This document shows, one piece after another, positions 11,042-25,003 of a DNA stretch of 64,000 nt. The stretch comes from Hyphomonadaceae bacterium (GTDB lineage: Bacteria > Pseudomonadota > Alphaproteobacteria > Caulobacterales > Hyphomonadaceae): NCBI GenBank assembly GCA_022760335.1, contig JALEGE010000170.1:18164-82163 (forward strand), given 5' to 3'. Both the position numbers and the translations under genes were made by a program. Each line of letters opens with the position of its first letter. Position 1 is the stretch's first letter. Under the pieces are notes generated by a model. That model saw nothing but the letters and a program-made list of their open reading frames with translations, was not told the DNA's origin and made no database searches.

Positions 11042-12283
11042 ATGACCGGCAAGTCCATCCTGCTCATCATCGGCGGCGGCATCGCGGCCTACAAATCCCT
11101 TGAGCTGATCCGCACCCTGTCAAAGCGCGGCATCGCGAGCCGCTGCATTGTCACCAAAGCCGGCGCGGAGTTTGTCACGCCGCTCTCGGTCTCGGCGCTT
11201 TCCGGCGAGAAGGTGTTCACCGATCTCTTCGACCTCACAGACGAGGCCGAAATGGGCCATATCGAGCTCTCGCGCTCGGCTGATCTCGTCGTGGTCTGCC
11301 CGGCGACGGCGGACCTGATCGGCAAGGCGGCGGGCGGGCTCGCCAATGATCTCGCCACCACCGCGCTTCTGGCCACCGACAAGCCGGTGCTGATGGTGCC
11401 GGCGATGAATGTGCGCATGTGGACCCAGCCGGCAGTGCAGCGCAATGTCGCGCAACTCCGCGCCGACGGCGTCACGGTGATGGAGCCCGATGAGGGCGCC
11501 ATGGCCTGCGGCGAGTTCGGCCCCGGCCGCCTGCCCGAAGTGCCGGTCATCGCCGATGCGATTGAAGCCGCGCTCACCGGCGCGCCCACCGAAAAGCCGC
11601 TCGCCGGGCGCCATGTGCTCCTCACCGCCGGGCCGACGCGCGAACCACTCGACCCCGTGCGCTATCTCTCCAACCATTCCTCCGGCAAGCAGGGCTATGC
11701 CATTGCCGGCGCGCTGGCAGCTTTGGGCGCAGAGGTGACGCTGGTCTCCGGCCCGGTCAGCCTCGCCACCCCGCCGGGCGTGACACGCGTGGATGTGGAA
11801 ACCGCGCGCGACATGCTGAAAGCCGTGGAAGCCGCCCTGCCGGCCGATGTGTTCATCTCGGTCGCCGCCGTCGCCGACTGGCGCCCGGCCACCTCAGCGG
11901 CGCGCAAATTGAAGCTGAAAACCGGCGCGAAAGACACGCCGCCGACGCTCAACCTGGCGGAAAATCCCGATATCCTCGCCACCATCTCGAAAAAGCGCAA
12001 ACACCGCCCTGGCCTCGTCATCGGCTTCGCCGCCGAAACCCACGACCTGGAAACCCACGCCAAAGCAAAGCTCGCCCGGAAAGGCTGTGACTGGATCGTC
12101 GCCAACGACGTCTCCGGCGACGTCATGGGCGGCGCGGACAATGAAATCGCCCTTGTGCGCGCGGCGGGCGTGGAGACATGGCCCCGCATGGACAAGGGCG
12201 CGGTGGCGCGGAAGCTGGCGGCGGAGATTGCGCAGGCGCTCGGGCCGTTGGGGGACGCAGAGAGCGAGAGCAGGGCGGGGTGA
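11042..12283 (+). CDS. coaBC: Bifunctional phosphopantothenoylcysteine decarboxylase / phosphopantothenate-cysteine ligase
   Basis: 413 aa. N-terminal flavoprotein motif ILLIIGGGIAAYKSLELIR and a C-terminal DFP ligase domain. Confidence 0.95.
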   Translation: MTGKSILLIIGGGIAAYKSLELIRTLSKRGIASRCIVTKAGAEFVTPLSVSALSGEKVFTDLFDLTDEAEMGHIELSRSADLVVVCPATADLIGKAAGGLANDLATTALLATDKPVLMVPAMNVRMWTQPAVQRNVAQLRADGVTVMEPDEGAMACGEFGPGRLPEVPVIADAIEAALTGAPTEKPLAGRHVLLTAGPTREPLDPVRYLSNHSSGKQGYAIAGALAALGAEVTLVSGPVSLATPPGVTRVDVETARDMLKAVEAALPADVFISVAAVADWRPATSAARKLKLKTGAKDTPPTLNLAENPDILATISKKRKHRPGLVIGFAAETHDLETHAKAKLARKGCDWIVANDVSGDVMGGADNEIALVRAAGVETWPRMDKGAVARKLAAEIAQALGPLGDAESESRAG

Positions 12284-13912: not shown

Positions 13913-15189
13913 CCGGGGGAGGAGTTGACCTCCAGGACGCGGGGGCCCTTTTCGCTGCGCAGGATATCGACGCCCGCGACGGCCAGGCCAAGCTCGCGGG
14001 CGGCGCGGCGGGCGACGTCGCGTTCTTCCTTGCTGAGCCGGGCGGCCACCGCAGTGCCGCCGCGATGGAGGTTTGAGCGGAACTCGCCGGCCGCGGCCTG
14101 GCGCTTCATCGCGCCGACCACTTTCCCGCCGATCACGAAACAGCGCGTATCGGCGCCGGCCGCCTCGGCAATGAATTCCTGCACCAGGAAGTTCGCGTCC
14201 AGCCCCCGGAAAGCATCGACCAGGCTCTCGGCCGCCTTCTTCGTCTCGGCCAGCACGACGCCTCGACCTTGCGTGGATTCCAGGAGCTTCACCACCACCG
14301 GCACACTGCCGGCCAGCGTCACCAGGTCCTTGGTATCCTTCGGCGAATTGGCAAAGGCGGTCACCGGCATGCCGATCTTGGCCGCCGACAGGATCTGGTG
14401 GGCGAGCAGCTTGTCGCGCGAGGCGGAAATGGCGAAGGGCGAGTTCAGGCAATAGGCCCCGGTATTGGCGAACTGGCGCAAAACGGCAGTGCCATATGAG
14501 GTCACCGAGGCGCCGATGCGCGGGATCACGGCATCATAGCGCGGCAGCACCTTGCCATCATAATGCACCTCGCTGGCGCTGGATTCGATGCGCATATAGC
14601 AGCGCGAGGTGTTGATCATCTCGATCACATGCCCGCGTGCCTCAGCCGCCTCGGCGATACGGCGGCTGGAATAATTGTTCGGCTCGCGGGTGAGCAGGGC
14701 GATGCGCAGCGGGCGTTTCACCGGGCGCTTTTTCGGCATGCCCTTGTAGAGATCATAGGATTTGCGCGGCTGGGCGAAGGACTGGTTGGGGTCGACCACC
14801 ATATCATCCACAATCGCGGTGCGCCCCAGCAGCATGCGATAGGACATGGTCTCGCGATTGGTGAGCGTGACCTCCACCGGCCAGCGCCGCGCGCCCATCT
14901 CGATCTCGGCGGCGATGACATAGCGCAGCTCGGTCTCGCCATTGGAGCTCGTCACATTGCGCCGGTCGACCACGGGGGCCGAGCAGGTCACCTCCAGGCT
15001 GGAATCTTCCGGATTGGGCTGGATCAGGAATCGCACCTGGGGGGCATCGGCTGGCCCGAAAGGCTCGATGACGGAAGCATGCAACGCGGAGGTGCGCGCG
15101 CCAGTATCCACCTTGGCCTTGATCGCCGGCAGGCCAAGCCCCGGCAGGGCCAGCCATTCCTCCCAGCCGAGTTTGAACGTCTCGCTCAT
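13807..15189 (-). CDS. rimK: RimK-type ATP-grasp alpha-L-glutamate ligase fused to an N-terminal RimB-like (PF05618, retropepsin-like 'ATP-dependent zinc protease') domain
   Basis: Start at [38 protein letters not shown] (DUF785/PF05618-type). From about residue 160 the sequence is RimK ATP-grasp ([20 protein letters not shown]...[14 protein letters not shown]). Confidence 0.9.
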
Positions 15190-15280
15190 GGGGATGCTCC
15201 GCTGGGTGACTTCGTGCCCCGTCTCGCGCATGTCGCGGGGCGGCGCAAGCGGGGATGTTCAGTGGGGCGGGCTTATCGTG

Positions 15281-15610
15281 CTAAGGTTCGATCTCTACAT
15301 GGAGGCCGCCTGCTTCCAGTTCCCGCAATGCGGCAGGAAACTTTTGCTCGAACAGGGTGACCAGCCTGGCATTGGTGGCATTGCCAAGACGTACCCAGAG
15401 CAGTTGCGGCGGAGACGGCGGTGCAACGAGCAGGCGGAAATCGCGGTCTTTGGTTACGATCACGGCGCCGCGCTGCTTGGCGGCAGCAAAGATCGCCGTG
15501 TCAGTTGCGGTCAGCCCGAGCAGATCGTCGGAATAGTCGGCTTCATGGCCCTGTTCCATGAGCCAAGCCGCCAGACGCAGTGGCAGATTGGCATCAACCA
15601 GGAAGCGCAC
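15281..15610 (-). CDS. DUF5615 family PIN-like (Mut7-C-like) protein, putative toxin
   Basis: 109 aa. MRFLVDANLPLRLAAWL...IVTKDRDF. It begins 3 nt after the DUF433 gene. Confidence 0.8.
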   Translation of the reverse strand: MRFLVDANLPLRLAAWLMEQGHEADYSDDLLGLTATDTAIFAAAKQRGAVIVTKDRDFRLLVAPPSPPQLLWVRLGNATNARLVTLFEQKFPAALRELEAGGLHVEIEP

Positions 15611-15613
15611 TGC

Positions 15614-15856
15614 CTATTCTGCCGCGAAGGCGAGGCGGTTGTCTGCAGCCCTGGCCGCGTAGGCAAGGCAAGCTGTGATATCCTCGTCTTCAAGGTTTGG
15701 ATAGCTTTCGAGGACTTCGTCCCGGCTTGCTCCGGCGGCCAGCATGTCGAGCACATCGCTGACCCGAAGGCGCATGCCCCGCACGGTCGGCTTTCCGAAA
15801 CAGACCTCTGGATTGACGGTGATGCGCGGGAATATCTCGGTTTGCATGCGTTGCAT
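15614..15856 (-). CDS. DUF433 domain protein, putative antitoxin
   Basis: 80 aa. ITVNPEVCFGKPTVRGMRLRVSDVLDMLAAGASRDEVLESYPNLEDEDITACLAYA is typical of DUF433. Confidence 0.8.
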   Translation of the reverse strand: MQRMQTEIFPRITVNPEVCFGKPTVRGMRLRVSDVLDMLAAGASRDEVLESYPNLEDEDITACLAYAARAADNRLAFAAE

Positions 15857-15904
15857 TATGCAGCGTGTGAGATTTTTCTCATAGCATTTTTACTAGCACG
15901 CGTG

Positions 15905-15935
15905 GGGTGGGTATCGGTTTCGCCTCAACCCACCC
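15905..15935 (-). terminator. Hairpin downstream of rpoH (possible terminator, no T run)
   Basis: gggtgggt-N15-acccaccc: an 8-bp stem starting 9 nt after the rpoH stop. Confidence 0.3.
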
Positions 15936-15943
15936 TACAGAGA

Positions 15944-16849
15944 TCAAGCCGGCGCGCCGCCCGGCAGGCCTTCTTCTTTTGCCATGCGCTGCATTGCCTT
16001 TTGCAGTTTCTCGAAGGCGCGGACTTCGATCTGGCGGATGCGTTCGCGGCTGACATTGTAGACCTGGCTGAGCTCTTCGAGGGTTTTCGGCTCGTCGCTC
16101 AGGCGGCGTTCGGTGAGAATGTGTTTCTCGCGCTCATTCAGGTCTTCCATTGCCGCGGTGAGGAGTTCCATGCGGGCATCGAATTGCTGGCGGTCGGCGA
16201 ACTCGGCCGCGTGGCCCTGCTCCTCATCGGCCAGCCAGTCCTGCCACTCCATGTCGCCATCCTTGCCCATGGGCACGTTCAGCGAGGCATCGGATGCGCT
16301 CATCCGGCCATTCATGGAGATGACGTCCTTTTCCGAGACGTTCAGGCGCGTGGCGATCTCGGCCACCTGGTCGGGCTTCAGATCGCCTTCTTCCAGCGCG
16401 GCGATCTCGCCCTTGATCCGGCGCAGATTGAAGAAGAGCTTCTTCTGCGCCGCCGTGGTGCCGAGTTTCACGAGGCTCCAGGACCGCAGGATATATTCCT
16501 GGATCGCAGCGCGGATCCACCACATGGCATAGGTTGCCAGACGGAAGCCCTTGTCGGGGTCGAATTTCTTCACGGCCTGCATCAGGCCGACATTGCCCTC
16601 GGAGATGACCTCGGCCATGGGCAGGCCATAGCCACGGTATCCCATGGCGATCTTCGCCACGAGGCGCAGATGCGAGGTGACCATTTTTTCGGCCGCTTCG
16701 GGGTTTTCATCCTGTTGCCAGCTCTTGGCCAGCAGGAATTCCTCGCCCTTTTCGAGCATCGGGAATTTGCGGATTTCACTCAAGTAGCGGCTCAGGCCCT
16801 GTTCCGGGCTCAGCGCGACGGCGCGGCTGGATGTATTTCCTGCAGCCAT
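15944..16849 (-). CDS. rpoH: RNA polymerase sigma-32 (heat-shock sigma factor RpoH)
   Basis: 301 aa. Sigma-70 regions 2-4 and an RpoH-box-like AQKKLFFNLRRIKGEI. Confidence 0.95.
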   Translation of the reverse strand: MAAGNTSSRAVALSPEQGLSRYLSEIRKFPMLEKGEEFLLAKSWQQDENPEAAEKMVTSHLRLVAKIAMGYRGYGLPMAEVISEGNVGLMQAVKKFDPDKGFRLATYAMWWIRAAIQEYILRSWSLVKLGTTAAQKKLFFNLRRIKGEIAALEEGDLKPDQVAEIATRLNVSEKDVISMNGRMSASDASLNVPMGKDGDMEWQDWLADEEQGHAAEFADRQQFDARMELLTAAMEDLNEREKHILTERRLSDEPKTLEELSQVYNVSRERIRQIEVRAFEKLQKAMQRMAKEEGLPGGAPA

Positions 16850-16989
16850 GACAAACTCCTCCGTGTCTTCCCCGCAACGACCTGCAGGCGCAGCATCGGC
16901 GTGGCGGCTTTTCCGGGATGATGTCTAGCCCCGTCCCACGGCGGCTCCCATCCCCATTCCGCGCATAAGTCCTATCACGCGGAACGAGG

Positions 16990-18166: not shown

Positions 18167-19159
18167 ATGTCGGGGACAGTGCTCGTGACCGGAGGGGCCG
18201 GTTATGTCGGCAGCCATTGCTGCAAGGCGTTCCATGAGGCCGGCTGGAAGGTTGTCGTGTTCGACAATCTCTCGCGCGGCTGGCGCGATCTGGTCCAGTG
18301 GGGCGACCTGATCGAGGGCGACATCAATGACCGCGCCGCGCTGGATAAGGCGTTGGCTGAGGTGCGGCCGGATGCTGTCGCGCATTTCGCCGCCTATGGC
18401 TATGTCGGAGAGAGCGTTACCAATCCTGGCCTGTACTACCGTAACAACACCATGGGCACCATGACCCTGCTCGATGCCATGGTCGCGGCCGGCGTGGACA
18501 AGCTGATCTTCTCCTCCACTTGTGCGACCTATGGCGTGCCGGAAAAAGTGCCGATGACCGAGGAGACGCCGCAAAGCCCGATCAATCCTTATGGCTGGTC
18601 GAAGCTCTTCGTGGAGAAGATTCTCAGCGATTATGGCCATGCCCATGGCCTCAGATCTGTGAAGTTGCGCTATTTCAACGCCGCTGGCGCCGATTTCGAA
18701 GCCGAGACGGGTGAGCGCCACGAGCCGGAAACCCATCTGATCCCGCTGGCCATTCAGGGCCAGCTGAAAGATGGTTTCAAGCTCACCGTGTTCGGCGATG
18801 ATTTCGACACGCGCGATGGCACCTGCGTGCGTGACTATATTCATGTCATGGACCTGGCTGATGCGCACAAGCGCGCGCTGGACTATCTGGCGGCCGGCGG
18901 TGAGAGCAATGTCTTCAATCTCGGAACTGGCACCGGCACGACGGTGATGGAAATCGTCGAGGCGGTGGAGCGGGTTTCCGGCTCACCGGTCGAGCGTAGC
19001 ATCGGCCCGCGCCGGGAGGGCGATCCGCCCGCCCTTGTCGCCTCCGCTGACAAGGCGCGTGAGATTCTCGGCTGGGTGCCGCAGCATTCCGACATCGAAA
19101 CCATCATCCGCACGGCCTGGAACTGGCACCAGAAAGAGGCCAACCGGCCGCGGGGCTGA
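18167..19159 (+). CDS. galE: UDP-glucose 4-epimerase
   Basis: MSGTVLVTGGAGYVGSH Rossmann motif, YGWSK catalytic motif, typical length of about 330 aa. Confidence 0.93.
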   Translation: MSGTVLVTGGAGYVGSHCCKAFHEAGWKVVVFDNLSRGWRDLVQWGDLIEGDINDRAALDKALAEVRPDAVAHFAAYGYVGESVTNPGLYYRNNTMGTMTLLDAMVAAGVDKLIFSSTCATYGVPEKVPMTEETPQSPINPYGWSKLFVEKILSDYGHAHGLRSVKLRYFNAAGADFEAETGERHEPETHLIPLAIQGQLKDGFKLTVFGDDFDTRDGTCVRDYIHVMDLADAHKRALDYLAAGGESNVFNLGTGTGTTVMEIVEAVERVSGSPVERSIGPRREGDPPALVASADKAREILGWVPQHSDIETIIRTAWNWHQKEANRPRG

Positions 19160-19190
19160 TCCGGCGGTATCTGATTTGCCCCAAACTCAG

Positions 19191-19220
19191 CCTCATGGTG
19201 AGCGGAGACGAACCATGGGG
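19191..19220. repeat. REP-like hairpin (loop GAGCGGAGACGA)
   Basis: cctcatggt-gagcggagacga-accatgggg, 32 nt after the galE stop. Confidence 0.8.
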
Positions 19221-19253
19221 CGAGAAATTGGAGAAAAGCTCTCTAATTGCACG

Positions 19254-19285
19254 CCCTCGTCCTTCGTCTCCGCTCAGGATGAGGG
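19254..19285. repeat. REP-like hairpin, inverted relative to 19191 (loop TCGTCTCCGCTC)
   Basis: ccctcgtcct-tcgtctccgctc-aggatgaggg. The loop is the same and the stem differs, which implies compensatory stem changes. Confidence 0.8.
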
Positions 19286-19393
19286 CTGCAGTGGATTGTA
19301 TTGGCTTGGGCTGATTTCTCAGCTTGGGGCTTCGACATTCCGTAATCATGGCGCTAAGAGCGACCATTCTTTCCCCGTTCAAGCGAGAAATCC

Positions 19394-20518
19394 ATGACGG
19401 CGCCCCGTAACATTATCGCCTATTCCGACAAGCTGTTCACCCCGTCAGAAAGCTTCATCCCGCGCGGCTACACCGCGTTTTCGCGCCTGAAGCCGGTCTA
19501 TTTCGGGCATGACCTGAAAGGCCCGGTCCCCGAAGGCGCGGAAGCCGTGGTGATGGGCCCGCTGCACGGGCCGGGCGGGGAGGCGGCCTTCAAACAGCTC
19601 GGCACGATCTCGGCGGCGCTGGAAGCCAAGATCGAAGAGCTTCAGCCCGTCGCGATCCATGCAAGTTTCGGCAAGTCCGGCGCCTATGCGCTCCCCATTG
19701 CGCGCAAACTCGGCCTGCCGCTGGCCGTCACCTATTATGGCGGGGACGCGACCAAGACGACCAATACCAAGGACAGCTTCATCCGCGTCTATAATCGCCG
19801 CCGCGCCGCGCTCTGGGCCGAGGCCGACCTGATCCTGCCCTGTTCGGACTTCATCCGCCGGGAGCTCCTCGCCAAGGGCGCGCCGGAGGACAAGATGATT
19901 GTCCATCACAACACCGCCGACCCGAACCGCTTCCAGCCGGGTGAGAAGGAAAAGATCATCCTCTTCGCCGGCCGCTGGACTGAGAAAAAAGGCATCGACA
20001 CGCTGATCGGCGCGCTGGCGAAACTCGGGCCCCAGTTGGACGGCTGGCGCGTGCGCCTGCTCGGCGATGGCGAATTGAAAACGGGGCTGGTGGCGGATCT
20101 GGAAGCGGCGGGCGTCACGGCGGAACTGCCCGGCTGGATTCCCGCCGACGAGATGCCGAAACACTTCGCCGAAGCGATGATCGCCTGCGTGCCGTCAAAG
20201 CGCGCAGCCTCTGGCGATGCCGAGGGCCTGCCGCTGGTCTGCGTCGAAGCCATGCTGTGCGAATGCGCGCTGGCCGCGACCCACCATGCCGGCATCCCGG
20301 AATGCGTGAAGGATGGCGAGACCGGCTATCTGGTGGATGAAGGCGATGTCGAGGCGCTGGCGGACAGGCTCGGTCGCATGATCGCCGATGTCGAGGCCAC
20401 GCGCGCCATGGGCAAGGCGGGGCGGGCTTTTGCGCTCTCGGACTTCAATCTCGTGAACCAGTCAAAACGGCTGGAGGAGCATTTGCTGCGGATCGCGGGG
20501 GAGCGGGGGGCGTTGTAG
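19394..20518 (+). CDS. Glycosyltransferase family 4 (GT-B, RfaG-like)
   Basis: 374 aa. The C-terminal GT1/GT4 motif EGLPLVCVEAMLCECALAATHHAGIPECVKDGETGYLV contains the E-x7-E region. Confidence 0.9.
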   Translation: MTAPRNIIAYSDKLFTPSESFIPRGYTAFSRLKPVYFGHDLKGPVPEGAEAVVMGPLHGPGGEAAFKQLGTISAALEAKIEELQPVAIHASFGKSGAYALPIARKLGLPLAVTYYGGDATKTTNTKDSFIRVYNRRRAALWAEADLILPCSDFIRRELLAKGAPEDKMIVHHNTADPNRFQPGEKEKIILFAGRWTEKKGIDTLIGALAKLGPQLDGWRVRLLGDGELKTGLVADLEAAGVTAELPGWIPADEMPKHFAEAMIACVPSKRAASGDAEGLPLVCVEAMLCECALAATHHAGIPECVKDGETGYLVDEGDVEALADRLGRMIADVEATRAMGKAGRAFALSDFNLVNQSKRLEEHLLRIAGERGAL

Positions 20519-20535
20519 ATTAACTTGATGAGTTT

Positions 20536-21066
20536 CTAGAAGATTATCCTGAATTGGGCGGCGGCATAATCATCGCCACCTCGAACATACAGCCCAAAGT
20601 ATTTGCCAAACTCGACCCCGGCGCTCGCAAATGGCATCGCCTCGTCTCCGACAAGCACACCGCCGCCAAGACCGAAGTTCTGATTAAGAAGGACAAGTGC
20701 TTCGGCGCCAGCACGGTAGTCGGCTGCGGGGGCGCATTCGCTGTCATCCGCAAATTGTCCATTTCGACTATCCCGACAGCGCGATTGCCCGTTAGAAAAC
20801 GTATCATTGTAGAAGGGGCTATCCTCGTCTTCGTAAAACACGACGTTGACAGGAATGAGATTCAGTCTCGCCCAATCCTTATACTGAATGCTTACGGCCG
20901 CTTCCAACTCGCCGCCTTCTTGTCCTTCGAACGCATACCCACCTGACAGATGGCCTCCCCAGCTCCAATCCTTCTGGGCTTTCAGAGCTGGCTTTTCCTG
21001 AGCTGTTGCGGTGCCGGCGCTGATTGCAACCAATCCAGCAGCGACCAAGATCTGATGATTATTCAT
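20536..21066 (-). CDS. Small outer-membrane beta-barrel-like protein (cassette A)
   Basis: Start at MNNHQILVAAGLVAISAGTATAQ (signal peptide). Alternating hydrophobic pattern and C-terminal ...AAQFRIIF ending in Phe. AT-richer than the flanks. Confidence 0.65.
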   Translation of the reverse strand: MNNHQILVAAGLVAISAGTATAQEKPALKAQKDWSWGGHLSGGYAFEGQEGGELEAAVSIQYKDWARLNLIPVNVVFYEDEDSPFYNDTFSNGQSRCRDSRNGQFADDSECAPAADYRAGAEALVLLNQNFGLGGGVLVGDEAMPFASAGVEFGKYFGLYVRGGDDYAAAQFRIIF

Positions 21067-21196
21067 ATGGGACCCCCAACCAAATACAGTTTTGGTGTGA
21101 AGATTCCCGCCTAAAAGCAACCTTTGGTTGATGCTTTTTCTGGTGATGGAGCTTTGCTCAGTCCATCTTTAGGCATAGCCCCTCCCTACGCCCTTT

Positions 21197-21300
21197 GGCG
21201 GCAGCGGTAAGTGGTACGCCTGTCAAGGAACGGCCACTGATCTATCCGAGCCCGAGGGGCAAGCCACTCATCCAGGCCCGCGTGCGAGAGATCGCCAGCC
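21197..21300 (+). pseudogene. Internal fragment of trmD (corresponds to 23780-23884)
   Basis: ggcggcagcggtaagtggtacgcc...cgcgtgcgagagatcgccagc aligns with the intact trmD at about 9 of 10 positions. It has no start or stop of its own. Confidence 0.8.
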
Positions 21301-21310
21301 GGGCGCAGTG

Positions 21311-21391
21311 TCAGACTTCAATCTGGTGAACCAGTCGAAACGGCTGGAAGATCATCTGATCCGCATCGCGACGGAAAAGGGCACGCTTTAG
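21311..21391 (+). pseudogene. Diverged fragment of the glycosyltransferase 3' end (copy 2 of 3)
   Basis: Encodes SDFNLVNQSKRLEDHLIRIATEKGTL*, against SDFNLVNQSKRLEEHLLRIAGERGAL* in the intact gene. About 4 of 5 nucleotides are identical, and many differences are synonymous or conservative. Confidence 0.8.
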
Positions 21392-22062
21392 CGGCCCTGG
21401 AAAAATGTGTTCACCGTCAGGCGGCCTTCGCGGGGATCGGCTGACAGGGAAAGATCTTCGGGGATCACGCCGGAATGCAGGCGGTAGCCGCGATAGATCG
21501 CCATGCGGTTGAACTTGGCCTTCACACGCCCGGTTTCTTCAAACAAGGATGTGTCGCCATCGACATAACCTGTCGGTGTGTTCTGAGCGTTTTCAGTGCG
21601 CAGAGCCGTGTCATATGGCCGATGACGTGTCTCGCTGATGGTCTCAAAGCCCGTCGAGCGGTGGCGATAAAATGCCGTGCCGCCGCCGGTCTCGTCGCAG
21701 AGATAGTGCAAAAGTGCGAGAATTTTCGGGCTGGTGGAGTCAAAATGCGGGATGCGCTGGATCGGCGCGAGGGCGTCGCGCGGCGTGGTGACCAGCGAAA
21801 AGGCGCATTCTGAGAGATGTGCGCCATTTTCAAGCCCGAACACGCCGGGCAGCACGTCTGCGAACAGCTCCATATGCTCTGACAGATAGCCAGGGTCGGC
21901 CTGGGCGCGGATGCCGGGATAATACGGCCCAATGGGTTGATATGACTTCGCGCAGGCCGCTTCGAACAGCGCGCCGGGATCGGAGGCGAAGTCATCAATG
22001 ATGACGACCGGTTCCCCCTCATTGCCAAAGTGGCGGATGTCATAGCGTTCGGGCATAGCCAC
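21388..22062 (-). CDS. Cupin / 2OG-Fe(II)-oxygenase-like hypothetical protein (resembles the DUF6445 family) (cassette B)
   Basis: 224 aa. Possible HxD...H metal triad (RIPHFD ... YRGYRLHSG). The family name is from memory and unverified. Confidence 0.6.
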   Translation of the reverse strand: MAMPERYDIRHFGNEGEPVVIIDDFASDPGALFEAACAKSYQPIGPYYPGIRAQADPGYLSEHMELFADVLPGVFGLENGAHLSECAFSLVTTPRDALAPIQRIPHFDSTSPKILALLHYLCDETGGGTAFYRHRSTGFETISETRHRPYDTALRTENAQNTPTGYVDGDTSLFEETGRVKAKFNRMAIYRGYRLHSGVIPEDLSLSADPREGRLTVNTFFQGR

Positions 22063-22145
22063 ACATGTGCCGCGAAATCCGTATGGCCCGCAAGTATGCG
22101 ATCTGCCGCCGCAATGCCTTTTGTGTCACCGTCCCAGCCCTTTTT

Positions 22146-22320
22146 CCGGAATGCGCGAAGGATGGCGAGACTGGCTATCTCGTCGATGAAGGCGATGTCG
22201 AGGCGACGCGCGCCATGGGCGAGGCGGGCCTTTGCGCTGTCGGACTTTAATCTCGTGAACGAGTCAAAACGGCTGGAGGAGCATTTGTTACGGATCGCGG
22301 GGGAGCGAGGGACGCTGTAG
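22146..22320 (+). pseudogene. Fragment of the glycosyltransferase 3' end (copy 3 of 3), with deletion and frameshift
   Basis: Matches 20297-20518 at about 9 of 10 positions. It lacks about 42 nt lying between two gatgtcgaggc direct repeats and has a further small indel. It ends in the same ...EEHLLRIAGERGTL*. Confidence 0.85.
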
Positions 22321-22484
22321 ATAGTCCCCTTCGTTTTAGCATCGCATACGCCTGTGTTATCCGGCTGAATTAGTCTCAGAAATCCGACCAGAACGCTCCG
22401 TAAACAAAACCTAAATTCACACCTTGAAATTCTTAACCGCCGTCCCCAGACTCCGATGGTCGTGAATTTTCGCGGCAAATGAGT

Positions 22485-22518
22485 GAGCCGGGCAAGTGCT
22501 CCAACACGTACCCGGCTC
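22485..22518 (+). terminator. Stem-loop followed by TTGTTT (terminator-like, or part of an sRNA/leader)
   Basis: gagccggg-N18-cccggctc followed by ttgtttcc, within the 330-nt non-coding stretch upstream of the HTH gene. Confidence 0.35.
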
Positions 22519-22606
22519 TTGTTTCCAAACTAGCGGTCTGGAGAAATCTTGTATGGTGCATATGGTGATAGCACCCGTGGGGTGTCAACTGAAATGTTTC
22601 ATATCC

Positions 22607-22619
22607 CGTCACTGTGACG
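22607..22619. promoter_or_regulatory. Perfect 13-bp palindrome CGTCAC-T-GTGACG, candidate operator
   Basis: It lies about 30 nt upstream of the ATG of the small HTH gene at 22650. Confidence 0.35.
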
Positions 22620-22649
22620 CATCCCGACCGCAATTGCGAGAGGTGATAA

Positions 22650-22859
22650 ATGTCACACGCACATCCGGGACGACCGTCCCATAAACTCACTTACGAAGAA
22701 GCAATCGAAGTCTGGCTTTTGCGCTGGGATGGCTGGTTTCAAAACCGGATTGCAGCCAAGTTTGATGTGAACCCAGGTCGCATCAGCGAGGTATTGCATC
22801 ATCATCGGCATCCTGGCTCATACGACGACGCGCTCAAGCGTCGGGGAGCGGCAGCCTGA
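22650..22859 (+). CDS. Small helix-turn-helix DNA-binding protein
   Basis: 69 aa. KLTYEEAIEVWLLRWDGWFQNRIAAKFDVNPGRISEVL has the pattern of short phage/island HTH proteins. GAGAGGTG SD. The stop overlaps the next start (TGATG). Confidence 0.7.
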   Translation: MSHAHPGRPSHKLTYEEAIEVWLLRWDGWFQNRIAAKFDVNPGRISEVLHHHRHPGSYDDALKRRGAAA

Positions 22860-23188
22860 TGACAGCAGCCTACTCTCTTGGCTCTAGCCAAACCTACTTG
22901 GAACTGCGCGATGCAGTGCTTACTCGCCAACCTTTGCGTGTCCTTTACAAAGGGCATTATAGGGATGTGTGCCCGCACACTCTTGGCCTGAAAAACGGCA
23001 AGGAAAAAGTCCTCACTTTTCAATTTGGGGGCGGCTCAAGCAGCGGTCTCCCAGCTGGTGGTGAGTGGCGATGCATGTTCGTGAGCGACGTTGAGGCAAT
23101 CGAGGTTATCGATGCGGACTGGCATACTGACCCTCAGCATTCACAGCCTCAAACCTGCGTTGACGCAGTTGATGTTGAGACCGGATGA
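22859..23188 (+). CDS. WYL-like (Sm-fold-like) small protein, hypothetical
   Basis: 109 aa. YKGHYRDVCPHTLGLKNGKEKVLTFQFGGGSSSGLPAGGEWRCMFVSDVEAIEV follows the R-x-V-x-P...beta-hairpin...W-R-x-F pattern of WYL domains. The assignment is by eye only. Translationally coupled to the HTH gene. Confidence 0.6.
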   Translation: MTAAYSLGSSQTYLELRDAVLTRQPLRVLYKGHYRDVCPHTLGLKNGKEKVLTFQFGGGSSSGLPAGGEWRCMFVSDVEAIEVIDADWHTDPQHSQPQTCVDAVDVETG

Positions 23189-23330
23189 TCTCGGCATAAT
23201 CACGGGCGCGTAGTTCAGCGTCTGCATCTATGAAGATTGCGCGGCGAACGCCGCCGTCTTCAGTCTGCGCCTCGACGATCCACTCCTCTGGATTGTCGGG
23301 GTTGCGGACAACCTCAGCATCTTGAAGCAT
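23106..23330 (-). CDS. Small acidic hypothetical protein
   Basis: 74 aa from MLQDAEVVRNPDNPEEWIVEAQTEDGG. Strong GGAGGGG SD 4 nt upstream of the ATG. Its 3' end overlaps the convergent 22859..23188 gene by 83 nt. Confidence 0.5.
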   Translation of the reverse strand: MLQDAEVVRNPDNPEEWIVEAQTEDGGVRRAIFIDADAELRARDYAEIIRSQHQLRQRRFEAVNAEGQYASPHR

Positions 23331-23573
23331 ATGATCCCCTCCGGGCAATCAAAGTGACTCAATCTAAAGCCAAGGGCAATTTACTAGCTTGAGCTAAAAC
23401 GCCACGGGCACCGAATTGTTCCCGCTTCACAGGAGCCAGTATTCCCGTCTGGTGGACCGGTCGGATTTGTAACCGCCTATACCACATTGCGGCGTCGGTC
23501 GTTCATCTCGGCCAATTGCCAAGGGCATGCACCTACAGCTTGGCAGTGCGGCATTGAACAGACATAAGCCCCC

Positions 23574-24299
23574 ATGCCCTTCGCCGTCTCCGTTCTCACC
23601 CTTTTTCCCGACGCCTTTCCCGGCGTTCTCGGTGTCTCGATCCTGGAGCGGGCGCGCAGAGCTGGAATTTGGTCACTTGAGACACTGGACATTCGGGATT
23701 TTTCACATCATAAGCACCGATCCGTTGACGACACGCCCTTTGGGGGTGGCGCCGGTATGGTGCTTCGTCCTGATGTGGCGGCGGCAGCGGTAAGTGGTAC
23801 GCCCCGTGGGGAACGGCCACTGATCTATCCGAGCCCGAGGGGCAAGCCGCTCACCCAGGCCCGCGTGCGAGAGATCGCCAGCGGACCGGGGGTGATTTTG
23901 TTTTGCGGCCGCTTTGAGGGGTTGGACCAGCGGGCCATCGAGGCCTGCGGCATGGAAGAGGTCTCGCTGGGCGACTTTGTGCTCGCCGGCGGCGAGGTGG
24001 CGGCACAGGCGCTGATTGAAGCGTGCGTGCGCCTACTTCCAGGGGTCGCAGGTAATGAGGCTTCGCTGGAGGAGGAGAGTTTCGAGACGGGCCTGCTCGA
24101 ATATCCTCACTATACGCGGCCACGCGTATGGGAGGGTCGGGAGGTCCCGGAGGTGCTGACGTCAGGCGACCATGGAAAGGTTGCCGAGTGGCGGCGCGCC
24201 GAGAGTGAAAAGATCACGCGTGAGAGGCGGCCTGACCTCCTTGAGCGCACAGACATTAAAGAGCCCAAGCGTCCGGAGACTGGCGATGAACGTGATTGA
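23574..24299 (+). CDS. trmD: tRNA (guanine37-N1)-methyltransferase
   Basis: 241 aa. [20 protein letters not shown] and [17 protein letters not shown] motifs. Confidence 0.95.
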
Positions 24300-24849
24300 A
24301 ACCCTTGAAGCCGAAGAGGCGGCCCGCCTCCACGCTGACAAATCCCTGCCGGACTTCTCGCCCGGTGACACGTTGACCGTGAATGTGCGGATCAAGGAAG
24401 GCGACCGCGAGCGGATCCAGCGCTTCGAAGGCGTGTGTATCGCGCGCAAGGGCGGCGGCCTGAACGAGACCTTCACCGTCCGCAAGATCTCTTTCGGCGA
24501 GGGCGTCGAGCGCGTTTTCCCGATCTATTCGCCGAACGTTGAGAGCGTGGAAGTCAAGCGCAAGGGCCGCGTGCGCCGCGCCAAGCTCTATTATCTGCGC
24601 GACCGCCGCGGCAAGTCCGCCCGGATCGCCGAGCGGACCACCGGCCACGGCATCGAGCAGACCGAGATCGCCGTCTCCAAGACCGATCGCAAGCGCCAGC
24701 GTGTGGCTGAAAAAGCTGCCCGCAAGGAGGCCGCTGCCCTGGAGCGCGAAGCCATGGCCAAGGCCAAGGCCGAGGAAGAAGCCGCTGCGGCCGCTGCCGC
24801 TGCCGCTGAAGCTGCAGCCGCTGAAGCCGAAGGCGGCGCCGAAGAGTAG
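24286..24849 (+). CDS. rplS: 50S ribosomal protein L19 with an Ala/Glu/Lys-rich C-terminal extension
   Basis: Start at [12 protein letters not shown]19 core [33 protein letters not shown]. About 70 extra C-terminal residues. 14-nt overlap with trmD. Confidence 0.93.
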
Positions 24850-24872
24850 GTCCCGGCCCATAAATTGATCAA

Positions 24873-24910
24873 ATCCCCGCACGCCTTGACGGCCTGCGGG
24901 GATTTTTTTG
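24873..24910 (+). terminator. Rho-independent terminator of trmD-rplS
   Basis: atccccgca-N13-tgcggggat followed by TTTTTTTG. Confidence 0.85.
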
Positions 24911-25003
24911 TCTGAAATCCGGATTTCCACTGCGCATTGGTTCATTTCCGCTCTGGTATAAGGCATTGATTATGCGGGGTAGAGCATGCGAGGGGCTGGT
25001 GGG

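Follow-up and report, generated by a model that had tools for sequence, protein, structure and literature searches.

How does a short chromosomal interval between two conserved genes come to hold, besides its own genes, several incomplete copies of both of its flanks? The question is raised by a 64-kb stretch of DNA (the window) from an uncultured Hyphomonadaceae bacterium, known from a metagenome only, whose closest relative is the metagenome-assembled genome (MAG) UBA5336 (locus L001; amino acid identity of 94% for the glycosyltransferase and 98% for TrmD). The interval, hereafter the slot (20519-23573), extends from an intact GT4 glycosyltransferase (GT) gene, G, to an intact trmD gene, T. 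Its present order is G - O - T''(207-309) / G'(1039-end) - D - T'(1-38) / G0(904-end) - C - T, where T'' and T' are trmD stubs, G' and G0 are GT 3' stubs, the bracketed numbers are nucleotides (nt) of the respective full gene and the slashes mark two internal joints. O is the outer membrane protein (OMP)-like gene of unit A, D the DUF6445 gene of unit B, and C a third unit of lower GC content. As an answer, we consider it somewhat probable that this place received additional DNA, spanning the slot, from two or more related lineages, each time via one homologous crossover and one illegitimate joint.

The repeats were searched by self-BLAST, the slot being used as query against the remaining window. 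Matches to the GT gene were found for 22163-22320 (with 20358-20518; 83.5% over 164 nt, E 4.6e-37), 22146-22205 (with 20297-20356; 93.3%, E 1.4e-15) and 21271-21391 (with 20391-20518; 70.3%, E 5.5e-13), and the match of T'' to trmD is given in Table 1. A repeat search and a MAFFT alignment returned the same repeat families. A preliminary description of this DNA had reported three GT 3' ends and an internal trmD piece about nine-tenths identical to trmD; these repeats are real and far above chance. Its left edge for the middle GT fragment, 21311, has to be moved to about 21304/21305, since a profile built from 16 GT tails matches 21304-21397; the same profile places the start of the right fragment at 22144-22146. 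G' is 87 nt long, while G0, of 175 nt, is equivalent to 222 nt of G. As already described, about 42 nt were lost from G0 between direct repeats and its reading frame is shifted: 42 nt are missing between the 12-nt repeats CGATGTCGAGGC (20344-55 and 20386-97 in G), of which a single copy is left at 22193-22204, and the frameshift results from an additional 5-nt deletion.

Since the related locus L007 has a DUF6445 gene directly between GT and trmD, the region upstream of the start of D was checked for trmD likeness. A profile of 7 trmD starts (-60 to +120), run with nhmmer over the whole 64 kb, gave T' as its sole non-self match, ending at CCGGA, and the pairwise alignment agrees. The earlier count of a single trmD fragment was therefore right as to T'', which is real, and incomplete as to T', and with this second stub the head-to-tail trmD-GT joints had been overlooked. 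In 22100-22145, one might instead see the GT fragment continuing to the left, since pairwise alignments to some GT alleles reach about 60% identity, albeit with gaps. This assignment was discarded, because the match of the GT profile goes no further left than 22144 and only the trmD-start profile is significant. A decayed trmD start at 21167-21196, to the left of T'', as would follow from a native O-trmD adjacency, was likewise rejected: shuffled controls did as well as, or better than, local alignments of this piece with six trmD starts and with the O-trmD spacer of L079. Over the whole of 21070-21196, homology to trmD or to that spacer was not found, the scores being below those of the shuffles. 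An Rfam scan of 19000-25000 gave sub-threshold matches only, and a promoter and terminator scan remained at chance level.

Table 1. Features of the slot between the GT gene and trmD, in coordinates of the window.
Feature	Position	Strand	Description	Evidence
G	19394-20518	+	GT4 glycosyltransferase gene, intact; left conserved slot flank; 374 amino acids	Pfam Glycos_transf_1 5.6e-31, Glyco_trans_4_4
O	20536-21069	-	OMP-like gene of unit A, predicted small beta-barrel protein; 177 amino acids	Signal-peptide-like N-terminus, C-terminal ...FRIIF
Region upstream of O	21070-21196		Abrupt left edge of T''	No detectable trmD homology
T''	21197-21299	+	Internal trmD stub (trmD nt 207-309)	92.2% to 23780-23882, E 1.3e-30 (self-BLAST); trmD profile 91.1 bits
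Joint 1	21300-21304		5 nt, CGGGC, assignable to neither stub	Alignments with trmD and GT alleles
G'	21305-21391	+	GT 3' stub (GT nt 1039-1125), in frame, own stop	GT-tail profile 50.9 bits, E 8e-17
D	21388-22062	-	DUF6445 gene of unit B, predicted 2OG/Fe(II) dioxygenase fold	PF20043 2.5e-77
T'	22074-22150	+	trmD 5' stub: about 35 nt of native upstream sequence and trmD nt 1-38, 1-nt deletion	nhmmer 16.1 bits, E 2.2e-4
Joint 2	22144-22150		Microhomology TTCCGGA (5-7 nt); trmD nt 32-38 = GT nt 902-908	trmD profile ends at 22150, GT profile begins at 22144
G0	22146-22320	+	GT 3' stub (GT nt 904-1125), 42-nt deletion and 5-nt frameshift deletion	GT-tail profile 106.7 bits
Unit C	22321-23573		GC 50-56% segment with small open reading frames: sORF1 22650-22859 (+), sORF2 22859-23188 (+), sORF3 23106-23348 (-)	GC profile
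T	23574-24299	+	trmD, intact; right conserved slot flank	NCBIfam TrmD equivalog 6.7e-89; nt identity to L001 94-99%
rplS	24288-24849		Directly after trmD	

Both internal boundaries join a trmD stub to a GT stub, in the order opposite to the chromosomal succession of GT and then trmD. Reversed joints of this kind are the signature of a tandem-duplication or circle-closing joint, and not of a site-specific cassette. The breakpoints differ from one joint to the other: on the GT side they lie at nt 1039 in joint 1 vs. nt 904 in joint 2, and on the trmD side at nt 309 vs. nt 38. In addition to its filler, joint 1 has an overlap of at most 2 nt. Because the breakpoints vary, joint 2 lies on microhomology and joint 1 carries filler, illegitimate joining is favoured over site-specific recombination. 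The locus had first been taken for a "cassette array", and direct copies of a gene 3' end, with a different gene after each, are what would be seen if integron-like or att-duplicating units had accreted by targeting and regenerating the GT 3' end. However, no integrase or recombinase was found in Pfam, NCBIfam and PHROGs scans of the open reading frames (ORFs) of the slot and of its neighbours, no intI in Pfam or NCBIfam, no attC-like inverted repeats at the unit ends in the repeat search, and no shared core crossover site at the boundaries. The partner of each GT stub is moreover a trmD stub, not the end of an element, and O and D are vertically conserved slot genes in relatives. With breakpoints that are not constant, no recombinase and no attC-like repeats, site-specific cassettes are excluded, and the probability left to such accretion is negligible.

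The 87-175 nt direct repeats could in principle recombine, and both GT stubs keep an in-frame tail and a stop. They might therefore be regarded as silent cassettes of a programmed system, switching the C-terminal tail of the GT or dropping O and D. Against this, G0 is frameshifted, the stubs are absent from relatives, and the tail corresponds to a conserved C-terminal helix rather than to a variable domain. Neither cassette-loss nor circle joints were seen among the contigs of the metagenomic run analysed below (X1), although contigs cannot show rare variants. Programmed variation is, on balance, hardly credible.

The preliminary description had proposed a comparison with the GT-trmD region of related genomes, and the loci compared here comprised 76 related loci with a GT orthologue and about ten trmD loci. 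GT and trmD are adjacent only in a subclade, where the content between them is variable. The GT-slot-trmD synteny was found in L001, L007, L038 and L082, as well as in L079 and L080, in which the GT gene is cut by the contig end. In the orientation of the window, the L079/L080 slot consists of one three-gene operon, with DUF6445, orf99 and an OMP-like gene, all on the reverse strand, between the forward GT and trmD genes. L082-L084 possess DUF6445-orf99, L007 has DUF6445 alone and L038 is empty (390 bp, no gene). As for L001 and L057, their slot carries a homing-endonuclease-like gene (11222-11965 on the minus strand in L001, the same in L057) coding for a 247-amino-acid protein with MUG113/T5orf172 (GIY-YIG-like) and HNH_repeat domains, which could render the slot break-prone.

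Two arrangements of unit B recur in these relatives. The stop codon of G' overlaps that of DUF6445 by 4 nt (21388-21391), the genes being convergent, as in L079 and L082, and D lies directly upstream of a trmD start (T'), as in L007. Since the 4-nt convergent overlap is kept as in L079 and L082, unit B is regarded as a native contiguous block. A homologue of O (57%) is found beside trmD in the slot of L079/L080. The DUF6445 and OMP-like genes are resident slot genes, not mobile cassettes, which is a further reason to give up the cassette array. Profile searches for a second GT tail or an extra trmD stub found none in the 76 related loci: within the present sample, the stacked array is unique to the genome of the window.

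Some further observations concern the same loci. L002 and L081 belong to one MAG, J06614_5, whose GT tail (82% nt identity) and DUF6445 protein (68-71% amino acid identity) are the closest to those of unit B. In L081, the DUF6445 gene adjoins trmD and has Hsp33 as its other neighbour, the GT gene being on another contig. As GT and trmD-orf99-DUF6445 are on different contigs of J06614_5, either the GT-DUF6445 adjacency was broken in this lineage or the bin is mixed. In bacteria, rimM and rpsP are the usual upstream neighbours of trmD-rplS. In all the trmD loci of the clade, neither of them precedes trmD-rplS; what lies upstream is the variable slot together with a GT/galE cluster of polysaccharide type.

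The divergence of the stubs is the main evidence as to their origin. G' differs from G at 21 positions (21/87 nt; 84 nt at the codon level), with dN 0.16, dS 1.0 and a dN/dS of about 0.16. For G0, 12 differences over 144 nt correspond to dN 0.02-0.03, dS 0.26-0.34 and dN/dS of about 0.09, the identity to G being 93% in the head and 90% in the tail. The closest tails to G' are those of L002 (82%) and L001 (79%), and its ending, RLEDHLIRIA..GTL followed by the stop, is like that of L002, L038, L024 and L050. G0 ends in ERGTL, which is the family consensus, whereas G itself ends in ERGAL and has lost the consensus GTL ending. The differences are synonymous-biased and the tails are shared with other lineages, so the two GT stubs diverged as working genes in other lineages, which upholds the earlier proposal of different donors. 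Each of the three GT tails represents a working allele of its own, and at least two donor lineages would have been involved.

The stub T'' behaves differently. It shows 8 differences from T over 102 nt (dN 0.07, dS 0.11, dN/dS about 0.6), all eight of which are private, being absent from seven relatives; six fall in three amino acid-changing codons (PRGE to PVKE, T to I), so that conserved residues are affected for the most part, and two are synonymous. T'' would thus seem to be a trmD copy, resident or L001-type, that has decayed. The trmD piece had been interpreted as a sign that GT and trmD were already neighbours in the donor or ancestral locus. The neighbourhood as such is borne out by the synteny in relatives; the piece itself has the appearance of a decayed local or L001-like copy and not of a diverged donor allele. 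When the stubs are compared with the resident copies, identity amounts to about 73-76% for G' and about 74% for T', vs. 90-93% for G0 and 92% for T''. Flank divergence therefore seems to be matched within units, G' going with T', while G0 and T'' are much closer to the residents. Across joint 1, the contrast between G' (21/87) and T'' (8/103) is significant (Fisher p = 0.002).

These values also bear on an origin from within, by tandem duplication and later triplication in situ of an L079-type slot (G-D-orf99-O-T) through microhomology-mediated unequal sister exchange, with reciprocal loss and later overwriting by other strains. Such a process would yield head-to-tail trmD-GT joints exactly as observed, the O...D order is that of the centre of a duplicated L079-type locus with each gene retained once, and T'', the sole stub fitting neutral decay, resembles a decayed local copy. 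Duplicated copies should nevertheless begin identical, yet the GT tails are at dS 0.3-1.0 with dN/dS of about 0.1-0.16, and the units carry different genes (O, D and C). Unit C, foreign to the slot, would need a separate origin, and the whole scenario, with at least two imports, two duplications and at least three deletions, is less parsimonious. We hold duplication in situ to be unlikely, while recognising that part of the pattern would suit it.

The GT and trmD loci of the relatives all lack a homologue of unit C. Its sORF2 and sORF3, together with the upstream stretch 22413-22654, are kept at 69-78% identity in L087 (3754-4482), between pntB and tgt on an unrelated contig of 2.46 Mb; sORF1, absent from L087, has only weak matches to phage helix-turn-helix (HTH)/HNH-type families. 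Additive import is favoured because unit C is of low GC, absent from the slots of relatives and found elsewhere in another genome. Concerning the unit itself, sORF2 (109 amino acids, faintly WYL-like) and sORF3 (80 amino acids) converge with an overlap of about 80 nt, and the pair with its upstream stretch of about 240 nt could represent a small module of mobile or toxin-antitoxin-like nature. A SymR-like Rfam match at 22482-22544 is sub-threshold.

The stacking could also be an artefact of metagenome assembly, strains with G-O-T, G'-D-T' and G0-C-T having been concatenated through their common repeats. The window is indeed metagenomic and represented in one run only, k-mer contigs do break at repeats, and depth is uneven (13-15x for the GT gene, 7.6x for O and 10x for units B-C). 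That one public run, X1, a seawater metagenome, contains 98% of the k-mers of the region. Its independent k-mer assembly gave a single contig of 2,604 nt (21236-23839), of even depth (10.1), which spans both internal joints. The novel junctions (21300/21305 and 22146) are inside this contig, and reads in which trmD nt 309 adjoins GT nt 1039, or trmD nt 38 adjoins GT nt 904, would not come from strains with an intact single slot. The contig breaks at 21236-56 and 23819-39, that is, at a 36-nt exact repeat common to T'' and trmD, which is the sole repeat able to confuse an assembly at k = 31. If the other path through this repeat were taken, no complete trmD would remain on the chromosome, and a chimera, which the preliminary description had listed as an assembly error to be checked, is for this reason very unlikely. 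Of separate interest is the depth of 7.6 over 20682-21256 (the contig with O) vs. 13-15 for the GT gene and about 10 for units B-C and trmD, which may be noise or a sub-population without unit A. Exact-sequence look-ups of the GT, DUF6445 and OMP-like proteins of the window found no record.

What the data show are the joints and where they lie, the synteny of the slot in relatives, and stubs that diverge in the manner of alleles. The following pathway is proposed on this basis, its direction (GT or trmD as anchor) and the order of events being likewise inferred. The interval between G and T would be a variable slot between two conserved genes in which, in the present case, no clean double-crossover swap took place. 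Instead, at least twice, a piece from a related lineage would have been added, running from inside the GT 3' end through the donor slot content to the trmD 5' end. Each addition would have combined a homologous crossover in a flank gene with an illegitimate joint. Two routes would be equivalent in their product: homology-facilitated illegitimate recombination (HFIR), or a fragment circularised by end-joining and then integrated by a single Campbell-type crossover. Illegitimate joints in HFIR are formed at short, usually GC-rich microhomology. Every such event would leave a trmD 5' stub fused head-to-tail to a GT 3' stub. Later trimming would account for the loss of trmD nt 1-206 from T'' and of the 42 nt and 5 nt from G0, and the stubs would be inert scars. 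Three polarities fit equally well: the anchor was always GT, it was always trmD, or unit B is the resident and is flanked by two L001-like imports. The locus can be classed as a well-preserved series of scars from additive recombination within a slot of variable content, and as such a known kind of genome scar and not a new system.

Several points weigh against additive import. The one-joint intermediate is absent from the 76 GT loci and the approximately ten trmD loci, and the stepwise history is for that reason drawn from one genome; all the sequence evidence comes, moreover, from one metagenomic run. O and D are native slot genes, each surviving once, which would also be expected from duplication in situ with reciprocal loss. 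The private and largely non-synonymous changes of T'' give no support for a foreign origin of this stub, and a donor with the G-O-T arrangement was not found; a metagenome scan for relatives of O revealed neither such a donor nor any relative. The homology available for the crossover is short in some variants (38-222 nt). Finally, when GT and trmD are compared with L001 along their length, identity does not change abruptly, as it would at a mosaic boundary left by the crossover: in GT it goes up in a soft step near 19700 (about 85%, then about 92%), and in trmD there is no clear step.

As regards the gene products, the labels first given to O and D hold at the level of the predicted fold. The protein encoded by O has a signal-peptide-like N-terminus and a terminal F, and its AlphaFold2 (AF2) model consists of 10 strands, all-beta, with a pLDDT of 83. 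It has no Pfam or NCBIfam match, and in Foldseek its PDB matches are exclusively transmembrane barrels (OmpX, Ail, OmpA), all weak (E >= 0.008, TM-score 0.4-0.55). The family is rare, with 9 matches among 5.8 billion proteins, the best at 57%, and possesses an invariant two-cysteine motif, NGxSRCRDSxxGQFxxDxxC. For D, a sequence search against the PDB gave no match; the AF2 model (pLDDT 94.8) is matched in Foldseek predominantly by 2OG/Fe(II) dioxygenases, namely HygX, ABH2, SnoN and PtlH (E about 1e-4, TM-score 0.45-0.56), and an HxD...H triad (H104, D106, H194) is invariant in 27 sequences. At the fold level, D is thus a predicted 2OG/Fe(II) dioxygenase with a double-stranded beta-helix. The OMP-like, dioxygenase-like, GT and trmD genes are proposed to remain functional.

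Two neighbouring regions to the left of the slot may also be mentioned. Between galE and the GT gene, an insertion of about 230 nt relative to L001 (19160-19390), present in one copy in the window, contains a 22-nt inverted repeat (19191-19212 and 19263-19284, 91% complementary). Its k-mer depth in X1 is about 205x vs. about 13x for its flanks, with many different sequences abutting it, and it looks like a multicopy element of the community, of the miniature inverted-repeat transposable element (MITE) or repetitive extragenic palindrome (REP) type. Further upstream, a 659-amino-acid ORF (14942-16921) has no Pfam or NCBIfam match; its C-terminal half is 49-74% conserved upstream of a GST-like gene in many relatives.

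Arrays of gene remnants have been described in other settings. For Rhs C-terminal displacement, a circular intermediate and a single homologous crossover shunting the old end downstream were proposed (Jackson et al. 2009, PMC2935791). As in Rhs arrays, an intact gene is followed here by co-oriented 3' fragments of variable length, with different DNA after each, and the fragments stem from exogenous functional alleles (dN/dS 0.09-0.16, dS 0.26-1.0, lineage-shared tails). Unlike Rhs, the gene is an ordinary GT4 gene with a homologous conserved tail and not a polymorphic toxin with variable tips, and the intervening genes are antisense, native slot genes and not immunity genes. Each fragment is, furthermore, joined to a remnant of trmD, the flank gene on the downstream side, and an illegitimate circle-closing or HFIR joint of this type is absent from the Rhs model.

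In the orphan immunity arrays of the Vibrio cholerae type VI secretion system (T6SS), HFIR-type sequential displacement was proposed, with an upstream homologous anchor and a downstream illegitimate end (Kirchberger et al. 2017, PMC5361080). In these arrays as in the present locus, DNA from other strains is inserted additively, one step after another, and 3' remnants of the displaced gene are retained. The present locus differs in that it has no effector-immunity logic, nor is there an evident selective advantage in keeping what was displaced. Also unlike these arrays, both flanks leave stubs here, so that the illegitimate joint itself is readable. Work on HFIR and single-crossover integration in Acinetobacter, S. 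pneumoniae and P. stutzeri is cited in the same paper (as cited in PMC5361080). In an E. coli conjugation assay of HFIR, the majority of recombinants had arisen when a circular molecule integrated by a single crossover, which duplicated 109-950 bp of the homologous locus (PMC3240628). The combination of one homologous and one illegitimate end is the same, and that range matches the GT stubs of 87-222 nt and the trmD stubs of 38-309 nt; unlike the laboratory constructs, which were under selection, the slot occurs in nature and carries no selection marker, and it would combine two stacked events with donors that diverge by 8-27%.

Integrase-driven genomic islands accrete tandemly at tRNA genes or gene 3' ends, and 3'-end direct repeats delimit the inserts. 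The slot differs from these by having no integrase, no constant core site, units of less than 1.3 kb and a trmD stub at each joint. A more far-reaching proposal is that the locus preserves, as a fossil formed in nature, the circle-closing or HFIR joint only postulated for Rhs and T6SS arrays, possibly provoked by double-strand breaks in connection with the endonuclease-like gene of L001/L057; this we regard as quite doubtful. If it is true, additive one-sided integration from lineages 8-27% divergent at the nucleotide level would operate at ordinary hot spots flanked by housekeeping genes.

Integration hot spots between core genes account for a large share of bacterial gene turnover, and clean double-crossover swaps erase the route by which the DNA entered. 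In the slot between the GT gene and trmD, both illegitimate joints are kept at nucleotide resolution, with putative donor-allele stubs alongside them and native single-copy arrangements in relatives. Arrays of this sort are mostly known from toxin loci, and the slot would thereby show, in a natural case away from such loci, how DNA can be integrated additively and from one side, be it by HFIR or through a circular intermediate. Additive import predicts one-joint intermediates in related strains as well as deletion variants between the stubs. If it is true, additive one-sided integration from lineages 8-27% divergent at the nucleotide level would operate at ordinary hot spots flanked by housekeeping genes.

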